Source: an uncultured Actinomycetota bacterium (GTDB taxonomy: Bacteria; Actinomycetota; Actinomycetes; Mycobacteriales; Pseudonocardiaceae). Taken from it: 64,000 bases of DNA. Where the stretch lies: NCBI GenBank assembly GCA_963826705.1, contig CAWGYF010000022.1, positions 2,099-66,098 on the forward strand, written 5' to 3'. Below are positions 45,600 to 50,500 of this stretch, in pieces (position 1 is the first letter of the stretch; every line of letters begins with the position of its first letter). Below the pieces are notes generated by a model. The model did not search any database, was not told the DNA's origin, and saw nothing but the letters and a program-made list of their open reading frames with translations. A program made the position numbers and the translations under genes.

Positions 45600-46045
45600 T
45601 CGCGCTGGATCCCTACCGATCATGAGTTGCCTGCCGCGCCTCCTCAGCAAGACGATCACCGAGATCCAGGACCGCCGCAGCGTTCGCGCGGTCGCCGCCG
45701 CCCGTGAACCTGCTGCCGAGCGTTGATCGCCGGTTGTGTGACATGAGCGCCACATATGGCCGGTATGTCGCAATTTTGGCGATCACCGTCCACCGGGAGC
45801 CCCCGCAGCCGGGCGCAGCCGGGCCATGATCGTCAAGAGTGGTGTCGGCGGCGCACCGCTGCGCTCCTGGCACCACGGGCGGCGATCACCGGGGCGACCG
45901 GGCCGAGCATTCGGTTCTTGCCCCCGCCAGCCGCCCCGCCAGCCGCCAGCCGCCATGATCGCTGGGAATGGTGCAGGCCGTGCAACTCTGCGCCTCGGGC
46001 ACCACTATTGGTGATCACAGCCCGACGGGGGTCGTGGGCCGTACA
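45600..46045. repeat. mosaic repeat D, copy 2 (inverted relative to copy 1, except the terminal CTGGATC..GATCCAG module)
   Basis: 45604-45690 matches 39015-39100 in direct orientation. 45685-46045 matches the reverse complement of 38770-39015 plus one array-C unit. Confidence 0.85.
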
Positions 46046-46589
46046 CCAGCCCGTCGAGCTGTCGATCGGCCATGCCCCGCACCAGGTCGTCCTCGGCACT
46101 GCGGCTGCCGTCGGTCTCGGCGATCACCAGCAAGCTGCCGTGCGTGATCGCGGACGCGCACGCCCCCCGGACCATCTCCCCCGCGTACGGCTTCCGCGGC
46201 CCGAGAGCGGCCAGCAAGCGGTCCTCGGGGGGAAGCGGCGGCTGCGCGGTGTCGAGCCGGTCGAGGAAGTCGTCGACCGCGGCCAGCGAGCGCCGATCCT
46301 GCGGGCCACCCAGCCCGAGGATGGCCCGCCCCGGCGCCTGTCGCTGTGCCGCGTGGTAGAGCCCCAGAACGTCGTCGGGCCCGTAGACCGCGGCGGAGAG
46401 CACCGCTGTCCCGATCGCCACCGACCGTGTGGCCGCGAGCAGGTCGAGCACCCGGTCGGGCCGGTCGAGCTGGCCGCCAGGGAGCCAGAGCGCCGAGTAG
46501 CCGAGTTTCTCCAGCTCCGCAGCATCGTGGCGATGCCCCCCGTCGTCAGCGACTTCGACTGCGAATCCGACCTGTCCGATGTCAGCCAT
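46005..46589 (-). CDS. luciferase-like (LLM, probably F420-dependent) oxidoreductase, likely 3'-truncated by repeat DNA
   Basis: ..AAELEKLGYSALWLPGGQ..RAILGLGG..RLLAALGPRK.. resembles LLM-class proteins. At 194 aa it is shorter than the ~280 aa I expect, and the last ~12 codons are encoded by an array-C-type module. Confidence 0.5.
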   Translation of the reverse strand: MADIGQVGFAVEVADDGGHRHDAAELEKLGYSALWLPGGQLDRPDRVLDLLAATRSVAIGTAVLSAAVYGPDDVLGLYHAAQRQAPGRAILGLGGPQDRRSLAAVDDFLDRLDTAQPPLPPEDRLLAALGPRKPYAGEMVRGACASAITHGSLLVIAETDGSRSAEDDLVRGMADRQLDGLVYGPRPPSGCDHQ

Positions 46590-46624: not shown

Positions 46625-47644
46625 CTACCCCGCAAGCACCCGGTTCAGCGCAGGAGCGACGTCGCGGTGGGTGGCGATCGGCGCGAAGCGGCCGTGGCCG
46701 AGGCGGGCCAGGTCCGCGCCGAGCGGCGCGTCGTGCTCGCCGTCGGTCTGCAGCAGCACGTGCAGCTCGGGGAAGCGGCGCGCGACCGTCCGCGGGTCGG
46801 GCCCCGCGTTGTGCACGGCGTCGGAGAGCAGCACCGCGCAGCGGCGGCGGGCGGCGGAGCGGGCCAGCTCGGCGTGCGCCACGGCGAGCGCGAAGTGCAC
46901 GTTGGTCAGCCCGCGGGCGGGGATGCGCAGAAGGCGGTCGAGCAACCGCGCGGCGGGCACGTGCGCTTCCAGTGGCGTGAGCAGCGCGGCGTCGGACCAG
47001 AACGCCACCACCGCGAGCTGGTCGTCGGCGAGGTCGGCCGACAGCGCCGCGACGGTGGCCGCGGCCATCCGCACCTTCTCCCCGCGCATCGAGCCCGACA
47101 CGTCGACGATCAGCACCACCGCGCGGCGCGAGCGCATCCGCTCGCGCACGACGATGTCGGTGTCGTCGGGCACGGGCCGTTCGGTGAGCACCTCGATCGT
47201 GCGGTCGAGGTCGATGTCGTCGGAGCGGTACCGGTAGGGGACGCTCGCGAGCTTCCCGGCGCCGCGCTCGGCCCGGGGATCGCGGGGACGCCGCCGGATC
47301 GACAGCCGCCGGGCGATCAGCTGGGCCATCACCGCCACTTCGCGGTCGGGCGGGCGTTCCTCGACCAACTCGTCCAGGTCGCGCAGCGTCGCCCGGCGCT
47401 GGGTGACGAGCACACCCTGTCCACCCGCGGGCTCCCCCAGGTCACCGGTGCCGCGCTCGGCGGAGTCGACGTCGACGACCAGCGGGCTGCCCGTTCCCGA
47501 CTGGTAGAGCGCAGGCGCTTCGGTGAGCTGCTTGGGACGGCGGCGCAGCGGCGCGAGGCCACGGCGCTCGTCTGCGCTGGGCAGCCCGATCAGGTTGTCG
47601 ACGTCTAGGCGGTGGGGTCCCGGCGCCGCGCGCCGGGGGAGGAG
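46625..47644 (-). CDS. VWA domain protein (MIDAS DVSGS); no own start codon near its 5' end
   Basis: ..RRAVVLIVDVSGSMRGEKV..LAVVAFWSDA..LLSDAVHNAG. The frame is open and coding-like from the T-run at 47645-47650. The first in-frame canonical start after the MoxR stop is a GTG 66 codons downstream. Confidence 0.75.
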   Translation of the reverse strand, partial: LLPRRAAPGPHRLDVDNLIGLPSADERRGLAPLRRRPKQLTEAPALYQSGTGSPLVVDVDSAERGTGDLGEPAGGQGVLVTQRRATLRDLDELVEERPPDREVAVMAQLIARRLSIRRRPRDPRAERGAGKLASVPYRYRSDDIDLDRTIEVLTERPVPDDTDIVVRERMRSRRAVVLIVDVSGSMRGEKVRMAAATVAALSADLADDQLAVVAFWSDAALLTPLEAHVPAARLLDRLLRIPARGLTNVHFALAVAHAELARSAARRRCAVLLSDAVHNAGPDPRTVARRFPELHVLLQTDGEHDAPLGADLARLGHGRFAPIATHRDVAPALNRVLAG

Positions 47645-48558
47645 AAAAAATGGTTCTCCCAGATCTCGGTGATCACCGCCTCCGGGGTGGTGTCGCTGGC
47701 CTCGTCGACGCCGATCCGGCCCGACAGCGCGAGCATGGCCGCGTCCAGTATCAGCCGCTCGCGATCCGGGTGGGACTCCAGCAGCTCCAGCTCGGCGGCG
47801 ATGGCGGTCAGGTCGATGGCTCCGCGCACTGACGAGCCCCGGCGCAGCTCGGGATGGGTCCGGGTCGCCCGGGTGAGCGCCACGGCGTCGGCCACCAAGA
47901 GCGTGTCGGTGCTGCCGGTGCGGACGGCGACGATGTCGGCCTCCTCCCCCGCGTCCTGATAACCGACGGCCAGCCGACACCAGCGGTCGTAGACGGAGTC
48001 GGAGATCCGTGCCGTGCCGACGTTGTCGAAGGGGTTCATCGACGCCAGCACCCGGAACGTCGGCAGAGCGGTGATCACCCCGACGCGCGGCACGCTCACC
48101 TCCCGCTCGGCCATGGCGCCCAGCAGCACGTTGAGCGTGTCCTCCGGCGCGCGGTTGAGCTCCTCGATGTAGAGGAATCCGCCGCCGCGCATCGCCTCGA
48201 CGAGCGGACCGGGCACGAAGTTCTCCGCGGAGTAGTCCTCACGCAGCACCCGGGCCGGGTTGTGATGCCCGACCAGCCGAGCTGGGGTCAACTCCGCGTT
48301 GCCCTCGACCAGAACGAAGGACACGCCCCAGTTCGCGGTGATCGCGCGCAGCATCGTCGACTTCGAGGTACCGGGCGGACCCTCCAGCAGGATGTCTCGG
48401 CCCGCGGACACGGCCGCGAGCACGAGATCCAGCTCGCGGCGGCGGCCGACGACATCACGCGCGATCGCGTCACGGCCCGCCCGGCTCGCGGACGGCCGGG
48501 CCGCCGTCCCGATACGTGACGGCTGCCCACTCGGTTCTGCCCGATTCGGTTCTGTCAC
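47605..48558 (-). CDS. MoxR-like AAA+ ATPase
   Basis: Walker A LLEGPPGTSKST, Walker B FLYIEELNRAP, then LLGAMAEREVSV and VLASMNPFD. 317 aa. Confidence 0.85.
   Translation of the reverse strand: MTEPNRAEPSGQPSRIGTAARPSASRAGRDAIARDVVGRRRELDLVLAAVSAGRDILLEGPPGTSKSTMLRAITANWGVSFVLVEGNAELTPARLVGHHNPARVLREDYSAENFVPGPLVEAMRGGGFLYIEELNRAPEDTLNVLLGAMAEREVSVPRVGVITALPTFRVLASMNPFDNVGTARISDSVYDRWCRLAVGYQDAGEEADIVAVRTGSTDTLLVADAVALTRATRTHPELRRGSSVRGAIDLTAIAAELELLESHPDRERLILDAAMLALSGRIGVDEASDTTPEAVITEIWENHFFSSPGARRRDPTA
47619..47650 (-). other. candidate -1 ribosomal frameshift cassette (slippery heptamer, 6-nt spacer, 8-bp GC hairpin)
   Basis: The mRNA reads CA-U_UUU_UUC-UCCUCC-CCCGGCGC-GCG-GCGCCGGG. 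The heptamer is in the X_XXY_YYZ register of the MoxR frame, and the -1 frame is the VWA frame. Confidence 0.45.
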
Positions 48559-48564
48559 TTGCCG

Positions 48565-49374
48565 CTATTTCTGGAGGAACCCGGCGTCCACCGGGAGGGA
48601 CACCCCGGTGACGTAACGGGCTTCGTCGGAGGCCAGCCACAGCACGGCGTTGGAAATGTCCACGGGCTCAACCAGCTCCACGGGCAGCAGGTTCTGCATG
48701 TTCGAGGAGAATCCCGGCGTCTCGAGGAACATCGCCATGTAGTCGTTGACCACCATCGGCGTGTGGACCCCAGTCGGGTGCACCGTGTTCACGCGAATCG
48801 AGTGTGACGCAAGCTCAATGGCCAACGTCCGCATCAGTCCGACCACGCCGTGCTTGGCCGCGTCGTAATGCGCGATGCCCGCCATGCCCTTGATGCCCGC
48901 CGTCGAGCTGGTCAGGATGATCGATCCGCCGTTGCCAGCGGCGATCATCGACGGCACCGCGGCCTTCACGGTCTTCCAGACGCCGGTGAGGTTGACCGCG
49001 AGCATCTCCTCCCAGGAGTCCTCTTTCAACGTCCACGCGTTCGCCGCGAACGAGGCGATGCCTGCGTTGGCGATGACGATGTCGAGTCGTCCGAGCTCGG
49101 ACACGCCTTCCTCGACGATCGCCAGCACCGCCGCGGCGTCCCTGACGTCGGCCTCGTGCGCGATGATGCGCCGGTCGAGGTCCTCCACCTGCCGCGCCGT
49201 CGCCTTCAGGTCCTCAGGGACCGCCATCGGGTAGGGCACCGAGGCGAGCTGCCTGCAGACGTCGAACGCGATGATGTCCGCGCCCTCCTGCGCCAGCCGC
49301 ACCGCGTGCGAGCGCCCCTGCCCGCGCGCAGCTCCGGAGACCAGTGCCACTTTGCCTTCGAGCCGACCTGCCAT
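48565..49374 (-). CDS. SDR family oxidoreductase of the mycofactocin-coupled type (carveol-DH-like)
   Basis: The N-terminus GKVALVSGAARGQGRSHAVRLAQEGADIIAFDVC is the hallmark of that SDR subfamily. The catalytic Y..AK is also present (HYDAAKHGV). Confidence 0.8.
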   Translation of the reverse strand: MAGRLEGKVALVSGAARGQGRSHAVRLAQEGADIIAFDVCRQLASVPYPMAVPEDLKATARQVEDLDRRIIAHEADVRDAAAVLAIVEEGVSELGRLDIVIANAGIASFAANAWTLKEDSWEEMLAVNLTGVWKTVKAAVPSMIAAGNGGSIILTSSTAGIKGMAGIAHYDAAKHGVVGLMRTLAIELASHSIRVNTVHPTGVHTPMVVNDYMAMFLETPGFSSNMQNLLPVELVEPVDISNAVLWLASDEARYVTGVSLPVDAGFLQK

Positions 49375-49517: not shown

Positions 49518-50500
49518 CTAGCGGGCCAGTGCGCCCCCGTCGACGGCGAGGCAGTGGCCGGTGACGTGCCGGGCCGAGTCGCTGAGCAGCCAGATCAGGG
49601 CGCCGGTGATGTCGTCCGCGGGGATGACCTCCACGAGCAGCTGGTCGTGCAACCAGCGTTTGTGGACGTCGTCGGGGGTGAGGCCCAGCTCGTCGGCGAG
49701 CCCGTCGAGCATCGGGGAGGAGACCGCGCCGGGCAGGATCGCGTTGACGGTGACGCCGTCGCCCGCCAGCTCGATCGCCATGGCGCGGGTGAGCCCGACG
49801 ACGCCGTGTTTGGCCGCGACGTAGTGCGCGAACTCCGGTAGGGCCCGCACGCCGCCGGTGGAGGCGATGTGGATGATCCGCCCGCGCGGTGACCGCCGCA
49901 GGTGGGCGGCGGCGGCCTTCGTCGTGCGCCAGACGCCGGACAGGTTCGTGTCGACGACCGCGCCCCACTGCTGTTCGGTGAGCTCCCAGAACGGGGCGCT
50001 GGTGACCACCGCGGCGTTGTTGACCAGGATGTCGAGCCTGCCGAACCCGTCGACGACGGCCGCCACGGCTTCCTCGACGGACGCGGCGTCACGCACATCG
50101 GCGACGACGGGCAGCGCCCGGCCCCCGGCCGCGCGGATCTCCGCGACGACGCCGTCGAGCTCCGCGCGGGTGCCTAGTGCGGTGTCCAGAAACGTTCACC
50201 GGGTCCTCGCGGGCCCAGACGACGCCTCGCGGCGTTGCCGCCCTCGCGAAGACGCCCGGTATGAGCTTCGGGCGGCGCCTTGCGAGACGCCGCCTGGATC
50301 CCGCGATCACCCGGCAACGTTCCTGGACACCGCACTAGCGGGTAGGCGGGCACCTCGAGGTCGCGGCAGACGTCGAGCGCGGCGATCGCGGCGCCCGCGT
50401 CCGCCAACGCGAGGCAATGCGAGCGGCCCTGGCCGCGGGCGGCGCCGGTGACGAGGGCGACCTGCCCTCTCAGATCGGGGTTGAGCGCGGCCCCGAACAC
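49518..50500 (-). pseudogene. mycofactocin-type SDR oxidoreductase interrupted by MITE copy 3
   Basis: GTG 50500 follows GGTGGAGG. The N-terminal part ..GQVALVTGAARGQGRSHCLALADAGAAIAALDVCRDLEVPAYPL stops at the MITE. The remainder (GTRAELDGVV..YVAAKHGV..CLAVDGGALAR) resumes after it, and removing 161 bp restores a 273-aa ORF. Confidence 0.85.
50174..50338. mobile_element. MITE copy 3, inserted in a coding sequence, CTAG on both flanks
   Basis: CTAG at 50174-50177 and 50335-50338. Nearly identical (2 differences seen) to the reverse complement of copy 4. Confidence 0.9.

Follow-up and report, generated by a model that had tools for sequence, protein, structure and literature searches.

A stretch of 64,000 nucleotides of contig CAWGYF010000022.1, from an uncultured actinobacterium of the family Pseudonocardiaceae (the whole stretch is called here the window), carries on its minus strand an AAA+ ATPase gene of the MoxR/NorQ type that overlaps, in the -1 frame, the coding sequence of a linker and a von Willebrand factor A (VWA) domain. 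The two coding regions meet at a short run of uridines followed by a G:C hairpin. We have analyzed this junction, its conservation in related genomes and metagenomes, and the proteins on both sides of it as a probable case of programmed -1 ribosomal frameshifting (PRF). The features of the locus are the following.

47605..48558, minus strand: MoxR/NorQ-like AAA+ ATPase, the zero-frame open reading frame (ORF) that gives the short product, 317 aa, Pfam AAA_5 and AAA_3.
47644..47650, minus strand: slippery heptamer U_UUU_UUC, phased with the AAA+ zero frame, in which the codons are CAU UUU UUC.
47638..47643, minus strand: spacer UCCUCC, 6 nt from heptamer to stem.
47619..47637, minus strand: G:C hairpin of 8 bp, a putative stimulator, with 5' arm CCCGGCGC (47637-47630), loop GCG (47629-47627) and 3' arm GCGCCGGG (47626-47619).
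47605..47607, minus strand: zero-frame stop UAG that ends the short product.
46625..47644, minus strand: -1-frame continuation with linker and VWA domain, giving with the 302 upstream codons a 644-aa AAA+-linker-VWA product.
46817..47119, minus strand: VWA domain core, matched by VWA_2 at E 3.8e-14 over residues 179-279 in the -1-frame translation; its MIDAS motif, DVSGS, is intact.

The ATPase ORF matches AAA_5 with an E value of 1.6e-23 and AAA_3 with one of 2.1e-15, has GPPGTSKS as its Walker A motif and ends in ..EIWENHFFSSPGARRRDPTA, with the stop located 12 codons past the shift site. A first-pass annotation of the window had described a MoxR-like minus-strand ORF whose stop lies 37 nt past a slippery site, and the anatomy that it proposed is borne out by our analysis. 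The heptamer T(47650)_TTT_TTC(47644), read in the mRNA as CA-U_UUU_UUC, has the X_XXY_YYZ pattern in the phase of the zero frame; the 6-nt spacer is followed by the 8-bp all-G:C hairpin, which is present in the minimum-energy structure of this region; and the -1 frame at this very point is that of the VWA domain. Continuing in this frame yields a conceptual translation of 644 aa, the size expected in that annotation (~644 aa) for an AAA+-linker-VWA product, and this translation is colinear with uninterrupted homologues. Its junction reads ..TEIWENHFF-LLPRRAAPGPHRLDVDN.., with ..WENHFFLLPRRAAPG.. as the predicted trans-frame peptide and IGVDEASDTTPEAVITEIWENHFFLLPR as the predicted junction tryptic peptide. 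D472, S474 and S476, the MIDAS residues, show no variation in the family alignment (A2). It was also correct that the shift-site run is the only A6/T6 run in the window (64 kb, 70.9% GC), although about one such run per 64 kb is expected by chance at 71% GC, as estimated from base frequencies. The rarity of the run in the window is, for this reason, not strong evidence; its conservation is.

The coding signal changes frame at the same place. It had been claimed that the coding potential of the VWA frame begins at the T-run, with meaningless sequence upstream, and the G+C content at third codon positions (GC3) agrees, since in this frame it climbs from ~0.5 to 0.85 over positions 47650-47600. 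On the 5' side of the run, the -1 frame is rich in Arg, Gly and His and has a non-coding GC3 (~0.45-0.5). The first canonical start in this frame after the slip site is indeed, as previously noted, a GTG (~47413) 66 codons beyond the MoxR stop. This is codon 80 counted from the slip site, past the conserved PLRRRPKQL motif, and in L001, a close relative, the first start is at the corresponding codon, 79. The -1 frame is also open for 110 codons 5' of the shift site, as far as a GTG at 47980, which delimits a 451-aa ORF (46625-47980, minus strand) overlapping the ATPase gene by 376 nt. We rejected this GTG as a real start, given the GC3 of ~0.45-0.5 upstream of the run and the stops that are found there in many relatives; that many relatives have a GTG at this same place reflects only the conservation of the ATPase nucleotides. 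The 451-aa ORF is spurious, and gene callers could choose the GTG at 47980 over the recoded gene, a likely source of misannotation.

To place the locus among its relatives, genomes were scanned with one genome per species, and the two halves of the gene were located by tblastn. This gave 80 related loci, 79 of which could be classified. In 62 of the 79 (referred to below as split loci) the VWA part lies in -1 with respect to the AAA+ part; these loci belong to many Pseudonocardia species, Actinomycetospora, Nocardia alni, a Nocardioides, Sporichthya, Patulibacter and various metagenome-assembled genomes (MAGs). Among the cultured Pseudonocardia strains in the set of related loci is P. asaccharolytica DSM 44247 (L009). 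The exact sequence TTTTTTC was present in 59 of the 62, with identical phase in all 59, and a scan of soil metagenomes contributed 11 further loci with the same CATTTTTTC and hairpin. The overall tally for loci with an anchored T-run pattern (n = 77) is 72 with T6, three with T7 and two with TTTTTCC. The T6 loci were independently assembled, from isolates and from metagenomes, and come from many species, laboratories and sequencing platforms. The zero-frame stop, TAG or TGA, is located 3 to 20 codons past the heptamer in the related loci. An alignment of orthologues had been suggested in the first-pass annotation as a way of checking the site, and its outcome is that T-run, spacer, hairpin and frame break recur together in 72 loci in addition to that of the window, while fused single ORFs are found in other relatives.

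This run is maintained despite a strong codon bias. Phenylalanine is encoded elsewhere in these genes by TTC 529 times and by TTT nine times (98% TTC), histidine by CAC 655 times and by CAT 57 times, and the overall GC3 is 0.94; the shift-site codons are nonetheless CAT TTT in nearly all split loci. The base before the run, a codon third position, is T in 59 of 59 loci, including four in which CAT has become CGT (His to Arg), and its retention where the amino acid has changed indicates that the constraint acts on the nucleotides. The true single-ORF fusion L083 encodes the same residues as CAT TTC TTC CTG and has lost the run, which is also lost in the continuous relatives and in those with an in-frame TGA. 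A divergent locus, L074, carries TATTTTC.

Some variants of the site should be described here. Two independent contigs (L018, position 3002, and L093, position 1403) have CAT TTT TCC, i.e., U_UUU_UCC, with the hairpin intact; the re-pairing of the A-site codon in the -1 frame would be imperfect, so that slippage of the P-site tRNA alone may suffice. A T7 run, which makes the ORF continuous, was seen in two sequencing runs in L081 (at ~3850) and L082, the locus of protein P0002, together with a synonymous change from GCG to GCA that weakens the stem. A T7 is also found in L097, which is identical to the T6 contig L096 in the flanks shown. These T7 alleles could be reversions to a fusion, phase variation or sequencing errors. 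Another continuous ORF, L017 (protein P0001, the top database match to the fusion query), keeps T6 and hairpin and has instead a 1-nt insertion ~20 nt 5' of the run, with GAGATTCTGGGAG replacing GAGATCTGGGAG, that turns the nearly invariant I-W-E-N-H into I-L-G-E-P. It is probably an indel error in a Nanopore long-read MAG.

Selection on the -1 frame can be followed up to the slip site. We compared the 10 codons after the spacer in 56 sequences: in the -1 frame 72% of the codon differences were synonymous and the mean amino acid identity was 0.89, versus 9% and 0.63 when the same codons were read in the zero frame. This synonymous bias points to purifying selection on the -1 protein from the slip site onward, that is, already 5' of the zero-frame stop. 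A conserved ATG, GTG or TTG for the VWA part was sought in the -1 frame of the split loci, both 5' and 3' of the site, and none is conserved. In 20 of the 62 split loci there is no such codon between the nearest upstream -1 stop and the site, this stop being only 14 to 15 codons away in L007, L022 and L059, and the first start downstream ranges from codon 20 to codon 107.

The hairpin is conserved as well. Its seven core stem pairs are formed in 95 to 100% of 59 junction sequences, and 92% of the cells pair across these sequences, versus 35 to 50% when the 3' arm is slid by one to three columns. The third positions of the -1 frame that fall in the stem (columns 30, 33, 42 and 45) are invariant or nearly so, whereas those located in the loop or just outside the stem (columns 36, 39, 48, 51 and 57) vary freely. 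The most variable positions of the junction are the last three to four bases of the spacer (columns 25 to 27 and, slightly, 28), as one would expect if the length of a spacer is fixed and its sequence is not. Even the divergent L059, L062 and L074 keep the hairpin, with the stem shifted by two pairs, and in the true fusion L083 the stem third positions are altered (CGC CGG GCC GCC CCC GGC). Local folds are more stable in the PRF loci (-18.1 ± 2.6 kcal/mol) than in non-PRF relatives (-14.3 ± 3.6 kcal/mol; Mann-Whitney p = 2e-4, with samples that are phylogenetically non-independent). An Rfam search of positions 47400-47800 gave no family, even at E ≤ 1. RNAalifold proposed an additional upstream helix, between GGGAGAA (the Trp-Glu codons, similar to a Shine-Dalgarno sequence; 47654-47658, columns 6 to 24 of alignment A1) and the U-run; we do not credit it because its columns are invariant and constrained by the protein and its pairs are G-U and A-U. 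A Shine-Dalgarno-like GGGAG lies 5 nt before the heptamer; any role it may have as a stimulator could not be told apart from the conservation of the Trp-Glu codons, which the non-frameshifting relatives also carry.

At the protein level, a large protein collection contains many uninterrupted homologues of 620 to 670 aa that cover ~95% of the 644-aa conceptual product. They align across the junction and do not have the slippery run. Two of them, P0002 (..WESHFFLHPRRAAPG.. / ..TEIWESHFFLHPRRAAPG..) and P0004 (..WEDHFFLRPRRAAPG.. / ..TQLWEDHFFLRPRRAAPG..), align without gaps with the predicted trans-frame peptide. A full-length trans-frame product of the PRF clade was not found in the collection of 5.8 billion proteins, and the locus is therefore represented at present as two genes. 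The best sequence matches of the ATPase in the PDB are the AAA modules of Midasin, MoxR (2r44), CbbQ and NorQ, and the same search gave no BchI/ChlI chain at E ≤ 0.01. The AlphaFold model of P0002 (mean predicted local distance difference test score, pLDDT, of 85) tells the same story in Foldseek comparisons, with NorQ at a template modeling (TM) score of 0.84 (E 3e-18), CbbQ also close, BchI at 0.44, and a NorD chain (9qhd_G) among the structural matches. The ATPase is NorQ/CbbQ/MoxR-like and not ChlI/BchI-like. In this model the last helix of the AAA+ lid (277-291) ends, at its C terminus, in the W-E-x-H-F-F motif, which puts the shift site exactly on the boundary between the AAA+ domain and the linker; a linker of low pLDDT follows (~292-420), and then the VWA fold (421-632).

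In our opinion, this locus is very probably a programmed -1 ribosomal frameshift by which one gene gives rise to two proteins. The site, its conservation, the switch of coding frame, the lack of an independent start and the colinearity with fused homologues all support this reading at the level of sequence and comparison. On arriving at CA-U_UUU_UUC, ribosomes translating the AAA+ ORF would have both the P and the A site occupied by tRNA-Phe, and the stable G:C hairpin located 6 nt downstream would resist unwinding. A fraction of them would then slip by -1 in tandem, with both tRNA-Phe re-pairing on UUU UUU, and would continue through the flexible linker of ~130 residues and the VWA/MIDAS domain to produce the 644-aa AAA+-VWA protein (~69 kDa), while those that do not slip would stop 12 codons later and release the 317-aa AAA+ protein (~34 kDa). 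Heptamers of the type H_HH.U_UU.Y, including U_UU.U_UU.C, are among the most efficient for -1 frameshifting in Escherichia coli, and some insertion sequence (IS) elements use this one (PMC4066793). Since the two products share the same ATPase module, mixed hexamers are to be expected, i.e., both proteins would co-assemble, with only some of the subunits bearing a tethered VWA adaptor. By analogy with related machines, we infer that frameshifting sets the sub-stoichiometric number of VWA-bearing subunits in the mixed hexamer, and this would be its rationale.

Several observations weigh against this interpretation. Most concern the hairpin. The stem varies so little that covariation is minimal, with a single compensatory pair (G-C to A-U in L054), and shuffled alignments match this in 26 of 500 trials. 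The 76-nt fold is ordinary for its composition (z = -1.3), and thermodynamic significance was for this reason not used as evidence. The encoded P-R-R-A-A-P-G motif itself favors a GC-rich near-palindrome, which explains part of the hairpin, and the non-frameshifting L050, L085 and L088, which have this motif, fold almost as well (-18.9 kcal/mol). The T7 alleles of L081/L082 and L097 indicate, in turn, that the run is mutable at the DNA level. With regard to novelty, our literature searches found no description of recoding in the MoxR/NorQ-like-VWA family, but the tBLASTn-based 'chlD' set of Antonov 2020 might include some of these loci. On account of the weak covariation, the ordinary z value, the coding motif and the moderate difference between groups, we rate the hairpin as a probable stimulator, one that seems to have been co-opted from pre-existing coding sequence; its role in stimulation is supported mainly by the conservation at synonymous sites.

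The same 644-aa fusion could be reached if RNA polymerase slipped on the U6 and added one U, giving a U7 mRNA that would be read normally. Protein-level comparisons cannot separate this transcriptional slippage from the ribosomal one because the fusion protein is identical. A U6 could in principle support it, and the homopolymer run, which is the element required, is conserved and, judging by the T7 alleles, mutable at the DNA level. Nevertheless, we consider it improbable. Documented transcriptional slippage in bacteria takes place mostly on runs of ~8-9 or longer (see PMC5009743), and six is short for an efficient slippage of the bacterial RNA polymerase. In addition, a conserved hairpin at a fixed spacing of 6 nt is a ribosomal signature for which RNA polymerase would have no need, and divergent members have motifs of ribosomal type on shorter runs, such as TATTTTC in L074, TTTTTCC in L018 and L093, and G_GGA_AAA in L126, L128 and L129. 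From these features we infer that the event would be ribosomal rather than transcriptional.

It might also be that no fusion is made and that these are two genes, the AAA+ one ending at its stop and the VWA one having an initiation of its own, be it at a non-canonical codon, at a downstream codon or through termination-reinitiation. Many MoxR-VWA systems do consist of two proteins (NorQ/NorD, CbbQ/CbbO and RavA/ViaA), a related clade (L050 and P0083-P0120) has a stand-alone VWA protein of 378 to 415 aa, and the collection searched contains no full-length fused protein from the PRF-clade loci. We find this quite unlikely all the same, given that the coding constraint of the -1 frame begins right after the slip site, 12 codons 5' of the zero-frame stop. 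No start is conserved nearby (20 loci have none upstream and the first one downstream is at codons 20 to 107), and starting at the first one available in the window would leave ~65 conserved codons, including PLRRRPKQL, untranslated. Two separate genes would also give no reason for the T-run in the face of a 98% preference for TTC, or for uninterrupted homologues that are colinear across the junction. The chance that the T6 is instead a homopolymer error in a T7 fused gene, or a recent inactivating frameshift in a pseudogene, seems negligible: homopolymers are error-prone, three related contigs have T7 (L081/L082 and L097, the last with the flanks of the T6 contig L096) and a nearby 1-nt indel is found in the Nanopore-derived MAG L017, but T6 and frame break are conserved throughout the clade, in 72 loci from many species, laboratories and platforms, isolates included, with both halves still under purifying selection, and in a pseudogene neither the phase of the heptamer nor the length of the spacer nor the frozen synonymous sites would have been preserved. 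The first-pass annotation had left the choice between a programmed -1 frameshift and a homopolymer indel, and the comparison with relatives comes down on the side of the former, backed by the 72 T6 loci, the codon bias, the frame switch, the absence of a conserved start and the match of the predicted fusion peptide to uninterrupted homologues.

A neighbor-joining tree was built on the conceptual full-length products. The frameshifting loci form one clade, from which Patulibacter, Sporichthya and L062 branch early, and only two continuous ORFs are nested in it, P0002 (T7) and L017/P0001. The deeper clades are continuous fusions. It must be kept in mind that database proteins can appear only as fused, because gene callers split the recoded loci. 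Plain fusions are a minority among the relatives that have both parts in one frame. In most of these the linker is interrupted by a single in-frame TGA, before and after which the homology runs on without a change of frame. In one group, reading ..LPNPI-stop-LPGPG.. or ..VPEPT-stop-L.., the TGA is found ~21 codons past the WExHFVL motif, at ~3064 in the locus where the flank is full. This group includes 11 genome loci (L057, L061, L063, L065, L066, L067, L069, L070, from Pseudonocardia eucalypti JCM 18303, L071, L072 and L075) and three metagenome loci (L086, L089 and L124), which form a single clade within the same larger group as the frameshifting one. A second TGA position, right after ..AAxPG (..AAxPG-stop-R..; GGT TGA AGA/AGG/CTG), occurs in four genome and three metagenome loci (L076, L077, L079, from Blastococcus aggregatus DSM 4725, L080, L112 and L117/L118) that are scattered among the continuous fusions in the tree. 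These relatives share no start codon downstream of the in-frame TGA, and in six loci the first one is located past the PLRRRPKQL motif. The base after the stop is C or A (UGA-C or UGA-A), and a search for a stimulatory structure 3' of the TGA gave nothing consistent. From their sequences, they are candidates for leaky termination or UGA readthrough.

Three distant loci (L126, position 858; L128, position 1213; L129, position 1222), with 37 to 41% identity in the VWA part, have G_GGA_AAA in the zero frame of the AAA+ gene, with a stop one codon further on and a VWA part that lies in -1. Judging by their sequences, these loci seem to have arrived independently at a -1 frameshift here. Taken together with the relatives that have an in-frame TGA, they suggest repeated recoding of one and the same domain boundary. 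A different arrangement is seen in L050, L085, L088 and L116 and in proteins P0083-P0120 (378-415 aa, named 'Mg-chelatase subunit ChlD' by JGI), which have a stand-alone VWA ORF that starts with the last AAA+ lid helix (..TELWENHF(V/I/L)LGPRRAAPG..). In L050 a separate AAA+ gene is located ~900 nt upstream of this ORF. The stand-alone clade looks like a fission product with a remnant of the ATPase.

These data may be put together in a broader proposal, which we advance tentatively and would not rate as high as an even chance. The NorQ/MoxR-like AAA+-VWA family would have evolved several recoding devices at one boundary (U_UUU_UUC with a hairpin, G_GGA_AAA with an immediate stop, and in-frame UGA at two positions of the linker), all of them from continuous-fusion ancestors. 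The selected trait would be a fixed, sub-stoichiometric ratio of VWA-bearing to plain ATPase subunits per hexamer, a cellular bacterial counterpart of the choice between frameshift and readthrough in retroviral gag-pol. The proposal includes programmed UGA readthrough in chromosomal genes of actinobacteria, which is, to our knowledge, almost undocumented.

With regard to the genomic context, one further gene adjoins the ATPase.

48565..49374, minus strand: mycofactocin-coupled short-chain dehydrogenase/reductase (SDR) oxidoreductase (TIGR03971, 396 bits versus a cutoff of 300), with its stop 6 nt before the AAA+ start.

This SDR is probably in the same operon as the AAA+ gene. In 39 of the 62 split genome loci an SDR of this cluster immediately precedes the ATPase gene in the same orientation, and it is the only widely conserved neighbor. 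A second SDR fragment is located at 49518-50096. Just 3' of the VWA stop there is a 194-aa ORF (46005-46589, minus strand) that matches positions 18-151 of the 280 in TIGR03620, an F420-dependent luciferase-like monooxygenase (LLM) family oxidoreductase, with 98 bits versus a cutoff of 220; it may be a truncated gene. The ORFs at 40 to 56 kb code for SDRs, a HAD hydrolase, the truncated LLM oxidoreductase, a GH3 glycosidase, a MarR-domain protein and a DUF4097 protein, and neither cobN nor chlH was found among those of at least 180 aa. No transposase or phage genes were seen adjoining the locus. The conserved pairing hints that the mycofactocin-coupled SDR could be a client of the chaperone-like ATPase-VWA machine, which is a speculation drawn from the gene neighborhood.

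Programmed frameshifting is rare in non-mobile bacterial genes, the well-known examples being dnaX, copA, csoS2 and chlD. If the frameshift is real, the locus would be a clean new example of this rare class, deeply conserved in high-GC Actinomycetota and with more than 70 natural replicates. Recognizing the site would restore the true 644-aa product to the annotation of dozens of genomes. The efficiency of recoding would then set the number of VWA adaptors per ATPase hexamer, an idea that can be tested for MoxR-VWA machines in general. The sister lineages that apparently reach the same end by an in-frame UGA or by another heptamer would make the family a natural system in which to study how recoding signals arise from plain fusions or revert to them.

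The site has the canonical anatomy of known bacterial -1 frameshifts, judging from its sequence, within a family in which our searches met with no earlier account of recoding; Pseudonocardia, AAA_5, MoxR and von Willebrand are all absent from the 2013 GeneTack supplementary files. In the frameshifted chlD genes, a -1 shift at A_AAA_AAR or poly-A gives ChlI-like and ChlD-like subunits, with efficiencies of up to 63% in E. coli (PMC3711429, PMC5009743, PMC9227772). The design is alike: one gene, whose short product, made by standard decoding, has only the AAA+ part, and whose long product, AAA+-linker-VWA, results from a -1 shift at the domain boundary. Both have a downstream RNA structure, single-ORF fused homologues in other taxa, loci annotated as two adjacent genes, and a C-terminal VWA domain with MIDAS after a flexible linker (here with VWA_2 at E 3.8e-14 and DVSGS). 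However, the AAA+ module here is NorQ/CbbQ/MoxR-like (AAA_5) rather than ChlI/BchI-like, the shift site is U_UUU_UUC instead of A_AAA_AAR or poly-A runs (PMC3711429, PMC5009743), the conserved neighbor is a mycofactocin-coupled SDR, with no cobN or chlH among the 40- to 56-kb ORFs of the size considered, and the hosts are high-GC Actinomycetota. Membership in ChlD/BchD was rejected, with 32 bits versus a cutoff of 779 for TIGR02442, 24 versus 500 for TIGR02031, and the structural scores (BchI 0.44 versus NorQ 0.84); the PF01078 match of the ATPase is limited to the Walker A region. The comparison with D-type Mg-chelatase subunits made in the first-pass annotation stands, then, for the logic of the design, for which frameshifted chlD is a precedent, and fails for family membership.

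E. coli dnaX is another cellular AAA+ gene with an X_XXY_YYZ heptamer and a downstream stem-loop, whose two isoforms share the ATPase module, differ at the C terminus and co-assemble. There the frameshift leads to the shorter product, whereas here it would lead to the longer one, and family and function are unrelated. A novel dnaX arrangement in which the frameshift gives the longer product, as here, is mentioned in PMC3711429. The architecture of heptamer, spacer and 3' structure is also that of the signals in IS3/IS1 transposases and in the phage tail-chaperone genes (G/GT), and some IS elements use the same U_UU.U_UU.C (PMC4066793), but the present locus is a chromosomal operon of housekeeping type and not a mobile element.

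As regards the machine itself, the locus shares with CbbQ-CbbO, NorQ-NorD, RavA-ViaA and Midasin/Rea1 an ATPase of the MoxR-class fold and a VWA/MIDAS partner. Midasin has six AAA modules and one MIDAS domain. In CbbQ6CbbO1 there is one VWA adaptor per hexamer (PMC4660213), and a single NorD VWA finger is inserted in the pore of NorQ (PMC13036017). By analogy with CbbQ6-CbbO1, NorQ-NorD and Midasin, one VWA per hexamer would be expected here too. The difference is in how it is supplied: in those machines the VWA is a separate protein or, in Midasin, all the modules are on one chain, whereas here recoding would attach the VWA domain to a subset of otherwise identical ATPase subunits.

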